From Escherichia coli (GTDB lineage Bacteria > Pseudomonadota > Gammaproteobacteria > Enterobacterales > Enterobacteriaceae): 64,000 bases of DNA. The notes below the pieces were generated by a model. It saw only the letters and a program-made list of their open reading frames with translations, was not told the DNA's origin and searched no databases. Below are positions 55,667 to 57,243 of this stretch, one piece after another; position 1 is the stretch's first letter; every line of letters starts with the position of its first letter. Made by a program: the position numbers and the translations under genes. The DNA is taken from NCBI RefSeq assembly GCF_045037415.1, contig NZ_CP173438.1; one strand, written 5' to 3'.

Positions 55667-56509
55667 TCATGATGAAATTGCCGAAGTTTTTTTATCGTGC
55701 TGAAGTACCGCAAATGCCATTAAAACCTCAAGAGAATAGCGGCGATAATACTTAACAAAACCATAATAAAATACTCGGGATGCAGCAATACAAAACAAGA
55801 GAAGAAAACAAAAAGGTAACAGTCTGATATTTATATCTATTAAAAAGGATAGAAGGAGCAGGAACATAAGCAACCAGACTGAAGCGAGAAAAACAAATGT
55901 AATGTTTCTACAAAAACCATACAAAGCAACATAGTTTTGCATTTTCACCTGATGATTTTTAGAATGTTCATACACATAATGATAAGCAAGGCGAAAAAGA
56001 TCGCCCCTCAAGCCCTTACGTCGATATAGCGTAGATACAGAAAAAACATTTATATAACCATCTCGTATTTGCGGCCAAAAGACTTTAATAAGTATAGAAT
56101 GCAGTGTGGTTTTATGATGTTCTGCTTTATCAAAAGCTGATACAGGAAATAAAAAAACTCCACGAATAAAATTAACTATACTGAACTTAGTATTATGTCG
56201 TTTTATTTTCAGGGAGCTTCTTTTAGAAAACAGATAAATTGAAGGATACCCAAGTTTACTGTTCATGTATTTTTCAATTAAACAGGATGATAGAATAGAT
56301 ATGAAGTGACCTGAAATATATGATAGAACGATTAATACCACATATATAAATACACTTATTATTTCTTTATATTTCAGGATATGGTTAAGAATACCTTCTA
56401 TATAAACAGGGTTAATTTCAATAGAAAACAAAAAAAGGATAAACAGGAATAACCCACCTGGAATTAGATAGCCCAAAAAGTCATAAAATGAAAACGGATT
56501 CTGTGTCAC
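55667..56509 (-). CDS. polytopic membrane protein (about 4 TM, ~120-aa loop), AT-rich cargo gene
   Basis: 280-aa ORF; GTG start with GGGGGA RBS; hydrophobic segments at ~13-30, 49-72, 196-218, 224-245. Confidence 0.7.
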   Translation of the reverse strand: MTQNPFSFYDFLGYLIPGGLFLFILFLFSIEINPVYIEGILNHILKYKEIISVFIYVVLIVLSYISGHFISILSSCLIEKYMNSKLGYPSIYLFSKRSSLKIKRHNTKFSIVNFIRGVFLFPVSAFDKAEHHKTTLHSILIKVFWPQIRDGYINVFSVSTLYRRKGLRGDLFRLAYHYVYEHSKNHQVKMQNYVALYGFCRNITFVFLASVWLLMFLLLLSFLIDINIRLLPFCFLLLFCIAASRVFYYGFVKYYRRYSLEVLMAFAVLQHDKKTSAISS

Positions 56510-56548
56510 ACTTCCCCCTGTGTTACTTGTAAATTAAAGGGTAAAACA

Positions 56549-57046
56549 TTATTTGTTTTTCCGTAAAGGATTAGCTTTCCATCTTCTTACTAACCATTCG
56601 AATTCTTGATATGTAGTATCCGAATTAATGCTTTCTCTGATTGCTTTAATTAATGGCTCGGCAATATCATATGTCTCTACAACTGTTGTGTAAGATGTTC
56701 TTTTTATCATTTTTTCATCATAAATACCTTCACGAATACTTACAGCAACTCGCTCGTAAAAATTTAAAATATATTGAAATTTTCGACGCTCGGCCATTTC
56801 TTCATCTGTTATTATGCAACCATCACAAGGAAAAACATAAGAACGAAATGATTTGCCTGAACGATGCACTTGTTTCAGGGTATGCAATGACTCTATATAT
56901 TGCATATCTTGCCGACTCTCAAAAAGAAAGTTGGCCGTTTGAGTTTTTTTTGCGGTACGCACATTGTAGATAATGGTTCCAATGGCAACCAAAACGCCAA
57001 GCAGAACAATAGCATTGCTGATGATTTGTAGTGTTATTGGGTTCAT
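56549..57046 (-). CDS. single-pass membrane protein with ~135-aa soluble domain, AT-rich cargo gene
   Basis: 165-aa ORF; N-terminal TM (ITLQIISNAIVLLGVLVAIGTIIY); first gene of a leftward two-gene operon (39-bp spacer to next gene). Confidence 0.7.
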   Translation of the reverse strand: MNPITLQIISNAIVLLGVLVAIGTIIYNVRTAKKTQTANFLFESRQDMQYIESLHTLKQVHRSGKSFRSYVFPCDGCIITDEEMAERRKFQYILNFYERVAVSIREGIYDEKMIKRTSYTTVVETYDIAEPLIKAIRESINSDTTYQEFEWLVRRWKANPLRKNK

Positions 57047-57066
57047 CCTATTTCATCCATAAAAAA

Positions 57067-57097
57067 GGCGGGGAGCAAATCCCCGCCTCATTAGAGG
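57067..57097 (-). terminator. intrinsic terminator/attenuator hairpin 14 nt upstream of the 165-aa gene start
   Basis: On the minus strand GGCGGGGA-tttgc-TCCCCGCC followed by TTTTTTAT, then 14 nt, then ATG. Confidence 0.55.
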
Positions 57098-57243
57098 TCA
57101 ACGTAGCTTAGAAACCATCAAATTCATCATACATTTTTTTCATATCAACCCCCTCATAGAAATCATAACCACGTTTTGTGGTTTTTGTGACGTATAAACT
57201 ACATCAAAGGCAAGCCACGGTCAAATATATAGGCATGCTTACC

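Follow-up and report, generated by a model that had tools for sequence, protein, structure and literature searches.

In a 64,000-nt stretch of an Escherichia coli genome (NCBI RefSeq assembly GCF_045037415.1, contig NZ_CP173438.1; hereafter the window), a P2/P88-like prophage carries AT-rich cargo at the hotspot between gpA, the replication endonuclease gene, and gpQ. Here we analyse two minus-strand genes of this cargo, which we denote A (165 amino acids, aa) and B (280 aa, with a GTG start), together with the DNA ahead of them. We find that the locus is a composite of two modules that are independent elsewhere and have been joined in E. coli. One consists of gene A, which encodes a membrane protein of the DUF4760 family, preceded by an intrinsic terminator and by an unannotated 11-codon open reading frame (ORF), which we denote the mini-ORF. 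The other is gene B, which encodes a four-transmembrane protein with weak similarity to Csx27. The 1.8 kb around the pair is 100% identical to the Escherichia phages vB_EcoM-705R2 and 'Entero_P88' (from ST131), and 288 of 5,426 complete E. coli genomes contain 80% or more of it.

Two modules joined in one locus

A first-pass annotation, made from the sequence alone, had described the pair as a leftward operon of a single-transmembrane and a four-transmembrane protein with a loop of about 120 aa. The ORFs and a hydropathy scan agree with this description, with a loop of about 130 aa. The G+C content of 0.26–0.39 over positions 55550–57050, compared with 0.50–0.62 on either flank, is as far below the roughly 0.55 of the phage backbone as had been stated, and the orientation opposite to the replication endonuclease (minus against plus strand), the strong ribosome-binding site of gene B (AGGGGGA, 3 nt before the GTG) and the hairpin downstream of the pair were likewise borne out. 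The placing of the pair between the replication endonuclease gene and cos stands in part: A and B are cargo of the gpA–gpQ hotspot, but ParM and a ParR-like gene intervene and cos was not located. The 19-nt cos sequence of P2 was not found anywhere in the window at up to three mismatches, so that the 'cos region' of this prophage is a presumed one. The gap between A and B measures 39 nt and contains no terminator.

Gene A encodes a full-length DUF4760 protein (Pfam PF15956, i-Evalue 2.1e-34, model positions 2–141 of 141). It also matches phrog_2284, a PHROGs family of unknown function, and its relatives carry the NCBI name 'DUF4760 domain-containing protein'; residues K115, R137 and W156 are invariant. 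The hydropathy scan places a single transmembrane helix at the N terminus, and the lysine and arginine residues that follow this helix suggest that the all-helical domain beyond it is probably cytoplasmic. An AlphaFold model based on a 36-sequence alignment (mean predicted local distance difference test score, pLDDT, of 93) is all-helical and features a long N-terminal helix, comprising the transmembrane segment and an extension, and a compact helical domain. When this model was compared by Foldseek with crystal and cryogenic-electron microscopy structures, as the first-pass annotation had proposed for both proteins, only chains of the EDS1 family reached TM-scores of 0.54–0.58, all others staying below 0.31; the E-values against the EP domains of that family, 0.4–3.6, are not significant.

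The likeness to the EP domain of EDS1, PAD4 and SAG101 is thus one of predicted fold, without sequence similarity: a Pfam scan gave no match to PF18117, and a profile search of the PDB returned no EDS1-family chain. Sequence kinship of A with any other solved protein was considered as well and found no support in the PDB search. DUF4760 also differs from the EDS1 family in carrying a membrane anchor within a 165-aa protein instead of an N-terminal lipase-like domain. EP domains bind TIR-derived nucleotides in a heterodimer cavity; no TIR gene lies in the locus. We regard the EP-like fold of the model as a lead rather than as family membership. Tandem DUF4760 paralogues were also considered, as some loci contain runs of roughly 160-aa single-transmembrane proteins after DUF4760, but a hidden Markov model search found no second DUF4760 in any locus.

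Gene B encodes a protein with four predicted transmembrane helices (residues ~12–30, 50–68, 200–224 and 230–250). Its AlphaFold model (pLDDT 89.7) is all-helical and has no informative neighbour in the PDB, and the central helical domain of about 130 aa enclosed by the second and third helices is probably cytoplasmic. The GTG start is supported by the homologues of B, which align from residue 1. B has no Pfam match; it matches phrog_12528, of unknown function, and has 1,125 representative relatives at E-values up to 1e-3, among which the strongly conserved polar residues are H68, E79, H177, E181, H186, K189, N192, R201, K253 and E261. The match of B to the PADLOC Csx27 profile is weak (E = 1.1e-5), and ten of ten diverse relatives match the same profile with E-values from 1.6e-8 to 7e-3, mostly across most of its length; some members of the family additionally match 'tm_4' and PDC-M48A at the N terminus. 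These matches, weak but reproducible, suggest that B is a distant protein of the Csx27 superfamily, in the sense of superfamily membership and not of orthology.

Csx27, an accessory protein of type VI-B1 CRISPR–Cas13b systems, shares with B four predicted transmembrane helices and an N-terminal motif. B differs in being about 75 aa longer, with its central helical domain, and in its surroundings: there is no Cas13b or CRISPR nearby, the neighbours being ParMR, DUF4760 and phage genes, and relatives of B lie beside xis–int. Csx27 represses Cas13b in heterologous assays. Makarova et al. 2019 reportedly dealt with Csx27 and its wider family and is said to be the source of the proposal that it forms a channel for single-stranded DNA. 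This channel is given as a prediction only in PMC11662929.

Co-occurrence was assessed in viral contigs, with 53 loci containing A and 59 containing B, and in contigs encoding selected homologues. The pair recurs only in near-identical copies, in which B is at least 96% identical, and in one metagenome contig (B 87% identical). B is missing from all of the remaining 45 A loci, and A from about 50 further B loci, counts that rule out an obligate A+B system. The two-gene system of the first-pass annotation therefore does not hold across loci, as pairing is confined to copies in which B is at least 87% identical. In many Enterobacterales (Pectobacterium, Klebsiella and others), P2-like prophages carry DUF4760 without B at this hotspot, placed between Q and the end of the gpA operon; it also stands alone at a chromosomal site of Enterobacter sp. 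R4-368. In E. coli, Salmonella, Enterobacter and Citrobacter, lambdoid prophages carry a homologue of B (277–288 aa, 42–48% identical) as the last gene before xis–int. These homologues lack a single-transmembrane partner and have an AT-rich upstream region of their own, and no mini-ORF was seen in the regions inspected upstream of B homologues. The neighbourhoods of more distant relatives of B are adjacent to integrases or methyltransferases and uninformative.

Within the complete E. coli genomes, A and B are strictly co-inherited, each being found in 288 (n = 5,426). B is the more variable of the two, with 12 variants at 95–99% and two at 80–90% identity. In the comparison with the one diverged copy of the pair, locus L124, synonymous divergence (dS) is 0.28 for B, with a ratio of nonsynonymous to synonymous divergence (dN/dS) of 0.28, and dS is 0.04 for A. 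The purifying selection seen on A and B in this comparison implies that both genes are functional, yet their histories differ: the roughly sevenfold higher synonymous divergence of B points to recombination or to a faster turnover of B.

The mini-ORF and its leader

The mini-ORF encodes the peptide MKKMYDEFDGF, and a Shine–Dalgarno (SD) sequence comparable to that in the window precedes it in all related leaders. Counted with a relaxed C-terminal motif within 200 nt upstream, it is present ahead of 60 of 64 distinct DUF4760 genes, compared with 2 of 1,371 other ORFs of the same loci. Of the four misses, L132 (the motif followed by YIMK) and L148 (DTWDD) are variants by inspection, L060 has a weak MKDVIGGF mini-ORF only, and L153 lies near a contig end. 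The last six codons vary at their third positions (GAT/GAC, GAA/GAG, TTT/TTC, GGT/GGC/GGA) and all three stop codons are used, and despite these changes the end of the peptide stays (D/E)EF(D/E)(G/W)(F/V). This codon pattern shows that selection acts on the peptide sequence.

The mini-ORF is found in alpha-, beta- and gammaproteobacteria, from Enterobacterales to Rhodovulum, Achromobacter, Neisseria and Pasteurellaceae, in two architectures. In Enterobacterales and Halomonadaceae (...DEFDGF, ...DEFEWV and ...DENDGY), it is followed by an intrinsic terminator. In the second architecture (...EGW[DE][GV](F)), which occurs in Pasteurellaceae, Neisseria, Achromobacter, Pseudomonas stutzeri, Rhodovulum, Zoogloeaceae and others, a terminator is absent, and DUF4760 begins either in overlap with the stop of the mini-ORF or no more than 7 nt from it, an arrangement that implies translational coupling of the two in these non-enteric lineages. 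L156 (Gallibacterium genomosp. 3) has a 31-codon mini-ORF with three copies of the motif, MKKFNLMEGWGGFYLGESWDDGNDCGEGWEV. This repeat variant, together with the variant that carries four residues after the motif, argues for a peptide product rather than a strict stall at the stop codon. The mini-ORF is unannotated in the three public records inspected, and its leader yielded nothing in Rfam (sub-threshold chance matches only), in NCBIfam or, searched as 'DEFDGF', in the searchable literature.

Two further observations concern the motif and its carriers. The motif (DEFDGF, or DEFEWV in some lineages) resembles the conserved C-terminal motif of DUF4760 itself, YQEFEWL (residues 146–152 of A); no co-variation between the two motifs was seen. 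It is also similar to the acidic-aromatic tails at the C termini of proteins such as SSB (DFDDDIPF). In the assembly of Pasteurellaceae bacterium Macca, DUF4760 and the mini-ORF occur on ten contigs (L144–L146, L157–L162 and L168) in two sequence types, which suggests a multicopy mobile element or several prophages.

The terminator that follows the mini-ORF lies on the sense strand of the operon; its stem-loop ends 18 nt before the ATG of A and begins 18 nt downstream of the mini-ORF stop. A hairpin with a U-run occupies this place in all 23 of the enterobacterial and Halomonadaceae leaders examined, with free energies (ΔG) of −10.6 to −19.4 kcal/mol and at least nine different stem sequences, at spacings of 16 to about 50 nt from the mini-ORF stop. 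The gap that separates this terminator from A is too short to hold a promoter, and no terminator lies between A and B, so that both genes need read-through. The first-pass annotation had taken it to bracket the pair on one side. The stem-loop exists, but it stands upstream of A on the sense strand and so does not close the operon; it belongs to the leader, as an attenuator or similar element, and does not mark a boundary of the operon. We also considered the terminator as a cos site, since its stem shares GAGGCGGGGA with the P2 cos core, but hairpins of this kind are also present at chromosomal and non-P2 loci, where their stems are unrelated, and the identity is probably a coincidence.

Other elements of the leader are less widely shared. 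Conservation of an anti-SD-like box that can pair with the SD region of the mini-ORF is limited to enterobacterial leaders of the P2-type clade, and comparison with shuffled sequences gives no significance; the box is lineage-specific, and in the minimum-energy fold the SD:anti-SD helix coexists with the terminator. Upstream of the mini-ORF, the best promoter-like site, GTCACA-N18-TATGAT, matches the consensus at 9 of 12 positions. A perfect inverted repeat lies between its hexamers and recurs in some P2-type leaders (L020 and L033), with the arms kept and the loop differing, but not in all; it could serve as an operator at this site or, in the RNA, form a 5′-terminal hairpin.

The terminator is interrupted in some strains. 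IS421 lies inside its 5′ arm (at ~57083) in E. coli LS4, MDR_56, MSI001 and an ST131 strain, as well as in IMG/VR contigs (equivalent sites in L171 and L017). In this allele the mini-ORF and any promoter are cut off from DUF4760, and the transposase lies on the same strand as A and B. These strains are viable, so the separation of A and B from their leader is tolerated.

Surroundings of the pair

Table 1. Positions of the pair, its leader elements and adjacent genes in the window.
Feature	Position	Strand	Remarks
gpA replication endonuclease	51406..54228	+	940 aa
ParM	54305..55264	+	
ParR-like gene	55269..55583	+	
Hairpin, GC-rich	55633..55655	either	between convergent ParR-like gene and B; ΔG −16 to −18 kcal/mol
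Gene B	55667..56509	−	280 aa; GTG start
B ribosome-binding site AGGGGGA	56513..56519	−	3 nt before GTG; kept in diverged copy L124
Gene A	56549..57046	−	165 aa
Intrinsic terminator	57059..57089	−	stem-loop 57065..57089, GAGGCGGGGA-UUUGC-UCCCCGCCUU, then U-run; ΔG −19.4 kcal/mol
Anti-SD-like box UUGACCUCU	57093..57101	−	between mini-ORF stop and terminator; pairs with mini-ORF SD region, ~−11.6 kcal/mol
Mini-ORF MKKMYDEFDGF-stop	57108..57143	−	11 codons; unannotated; conserved partner/leader of DUF4760
Mini-ORF SD sequence GAGGGGG	57149..57155	−	5 nt before ATG
Inverted repeat AACCAC-N5-GTGGTT	57167..57183	−	perfect; just upstream of mini-ORF SD
Non-coding DNA	between gene A and 174-aa ORF		~700 bp
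174-aa ORF	57770..58294	+	followed by portal Q and terminase (−)

The hairpin downstream of B shows no clear U-run on the operon strand and was not called by a terminator scan; it is possibly a weak bidirectional transcription stop. Directly after gpA lies a plus-strand partition cassette (54305..55583) consisting of ParM (StbA) and the ParR-like gene (Plasmid_stab_B, phrog_2515). At 940 aa, the gpA of the window exceeds the gpA-like ORFs of 783–879 aa found beside DUF4760 in most other P2-like loci. The 174-aa ORF is a third hotspot gene (WP_000236495; phrog_5091, function unknown) with no PADLOC match, and WP_000236495 also appears in locus strings of Rousset et al. 2022. In the deposited record of phage vB_EcoM-705R2 (ON470623.1, our L172), the DUF4760 gene is uncalled, two small opposite-strand ORFs are placed across it and ParM is labelled 'recombinase'.

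Candidate functions of the locus

Rousset et al. 2022 (Cell Host Microbe) surveyed the gpA–gpQ hotspot of E. coli, and their Table S5B contains the same two proteins under system #3, 'DUF4760', with 1,102 occurrences and the annotation '1 TM in protein 1, 4 TM in protein 2'; it is the third most frequent cargo in that catalogue. System #3 is not among the P2 systems cloned in the study, whether active or inactive, and the hotspot is reported to be rich in anti-phage systems and to hold partition systems and a cytolethal distending toxin as well. The first-pass annotation had called the system undescribed; the pair is in fact catalogued, although it was not cloned or tested in that work. The mini-ORF, the terminator, the independence of the modules and the relationships to Csx27 and the EP fold were not met with in the parts of that paper that were consulted. 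A literature search for 'DUF4760' returned no other relevant paper, and the term is absent from the supplements of Vassallo et al. 2022. Neither protein convincingly matches any named defence model in PADLOC v2 (Kiwa, RexAB, Zorya, Pycsar, Old, Tin and others), which returned Csx27, weakly, and PprPIWI and PDC-S35 at E > 0.01; an NCBIfam scan of A and B gave nothing, and PHROGs gave families of unknown function only. The first-pass view that neither protein belongs to a named defence system is therefore upheld for PADLOC and NCBIfam, but the proteins are not wholly unrecognised, as A is PF15956 and B a weak match to the Csx27 superfamily.

We favour, at a probability of about 0.4, a reading in which a peptide- and terminator-gated DUF4760 membrane module, with a Csx27-like protein downstream, would act in phage exclusion or abortive infection. 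The first module, an old one, would comprise the translated mini-ORF, the terminator and an inner-membrane DUF4760 protein with one N-terminal helix and its helical domain facing the cytoplasm; the second would be the four-transmembrane Csx27-superfamily protein, elsewhere a stand-alone accessory gene beside xis–int. In a lysogen, most transcripts would end after the mini-ORF, yielding much peptide and little A or B, and the two membrane proteins would be scarce, appearing only when the terminator gate fails. The peptide may bind the cytoplasmic domain of DUF4760 as a ligand or inhibit it in the manner of an antitoxin, or it may be a ribosome-sensing leader. An infecting phage that disturbs host transcription or translation would then set DUF4760 and the Csx27-like putative channel to act on the inner membrane, leading to exclusion or abortion.

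A role in defence or abortive infection is plausible. We infer it from position, this being the usual role of cargo at the hotspot, and in known defence systems membrane proteins have been regarded as the effectors by which an infected cell kills itself. The locus resembles those of lambda RexAB, P22 SieB and P2 Tin and Old in being a prophage-borne, AT-rich, lysogenic-conversion locus opposite to the replication gene, and by analogy in having membrane proteins as likely effectors. It differs from them in lacking detectable homology (PADLOC returned no Rex or Old model) and in a layout unlike that of RexAB, in which RexA is soluble and RexB has four transmembrane helices.

Several points weigh against the gated-module reading. 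PADLOC v2 gave no significant match of A or B to validated defence proteins. The usual lambdoid site of B, the end of the early-left operon, fits a function in lytic growth or counter-defence equally well. The link between A and B is specific to E. coli, and the sevenfold difference in their synonymous divergence in L124 suits mere adjacency as well as cooperation. As to the gate, the candidate promoter of the operon reaches 9 of 12 consensus positions only; no antiterminator common to all leaders was found, and the SD:anti-SD pairing, restricted to one clade, does not stand out from shuffled sequences. The viability of the strains with IS421 in the terminator indicates either that derepression is tolerated or that A and B are silent there.

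The same leader could act purely in cis, and we consider this somewhat unlikely. The peptide would then have no function of its own: the acidic-aromatic nascent chain would stall or drop the ribosome under some condition, such as a small molecule, Mg2+ or the state of a translation factor, and the stall would decide terminator read-through in enterics, or use of the coupled DUF4760 start in other lineages, making the membrane proteins effectors induced by stress or infection. The layout is the classic one of a short ORF with an SD sequence, an intrinsic terminator and a gene, and the window shares it with the leader-peptide and arrest-peptide classes trpL, mgtL–mgtA, tnaC and ermCL; mgtL, an acidic leader, exerts its control over MgtA, a membrane protein, by ribosome destabilization. 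The conserved residues of the mini-ORF are the last five or six before the stop, as in short arrest peptides, and its stop overlaps the downstream start in non-enteric lineages. Yet regulatory codons do not form a run in it, no conserved antiterminator was found, and its stop lies anywhere between 16 and about 50 nt from the terminator. The motif itself is not at a fixed distance from the stop, with W/F at −3 or −4 and, in one variant, four more residues, and another variant has three motif repeats. The motif is also kept across phyla even where there is no terminator and the ORFs overlap. Its retention in both architectures, together with the variable motif-to-stop distance and the repeats, favours a peptide acting on DUF4760 over cis-acting arrest.

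A peptide acting on DUF4760 could also serve prophage maintenance, as one half of an addiction (post-segregational killing) pair in a perhaps plasmid-like element to which B would be unrelated cargo. The pair sits directly beside the ParM/ParR cassette, and a small upstream peptide with a larger protein, their stop and start overlapping in many lineages, resembles a type II toxin–antitoxin operon, although in the window a terminator separates the two. But DUF4760 with its mini-ORF is equally common in P2-like prophages without ParMR and occurs at a chromosomal site too, and we know of no antitoxin of only 8–13 aa; we regard this reading as very doubtful. Unlikely, but less so, is that A and B are two unrelated accessory membrane genes lying side by side and serving the envelope or stress physiology of the lysogen or the lytic cycle of the phage. 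Each is autonomous elsewhere, neither has homology to validated defence proteins, B homologues sit in the early-left operon of lambdoid phages, and the hotspot also carries non-defence cargo according to Rousset et al. 2022. Mere adjacency is harder to square with the strict co-inheritance in E. coli (288 and 288), with the 39-nt junction and ribosome-binding site kept in the diverged copy L124, with a CRISPR-associated protein among the relatives of B and with the richness of the hotspot in defence genes, again according to that study.

A bolder extension of the gated-module reading is one that we consider improbable. DUF4760 and the mini-ORF would make up a module of two parts, unrecognized so far and widespread among Proteobacteria and their phages. 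A cytoplasmic acidic-aromatic micropeptide (...DEFDGF/...EGWDG) would be the ligand or inhibitor of a membrane-tethered receptor whose fold would be the first prokaryotic counterpart of the plant EDS1/PAD4 EP domain. Loss or displacement of the peptide on infection would switch the effector on, and the Csx27-like channel would have been captured in ST131 prophages.

The pair is carried by about 5% of complete E. coli genomes, including those of the pandemic ST131 lineage (EC958). What was a vague entry, 'two hypothetical membrane proteins', can now be described by its parts: a gene of 11 codons missed by annotation pipelines, a strong terminator and two separable modules. Of greater interest than the pair is the mini-ORF–terminator–DUF4760 module, behind which a Csx27-like gene has been captured. 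Gating of DUF4760 by the peptide, if true, would mean that prophages have a new way of silencing a membrane effector, and a conserved micropeptide would have been hidden in what looks like a leader. If the EP-like fold is true, it would provide a prokaryotic relative for the EP domain of plant EDS1, which has so far been described without structural homologues outside the EDS1 family. The Csx27 family would extend to the accessory genes of prophages.

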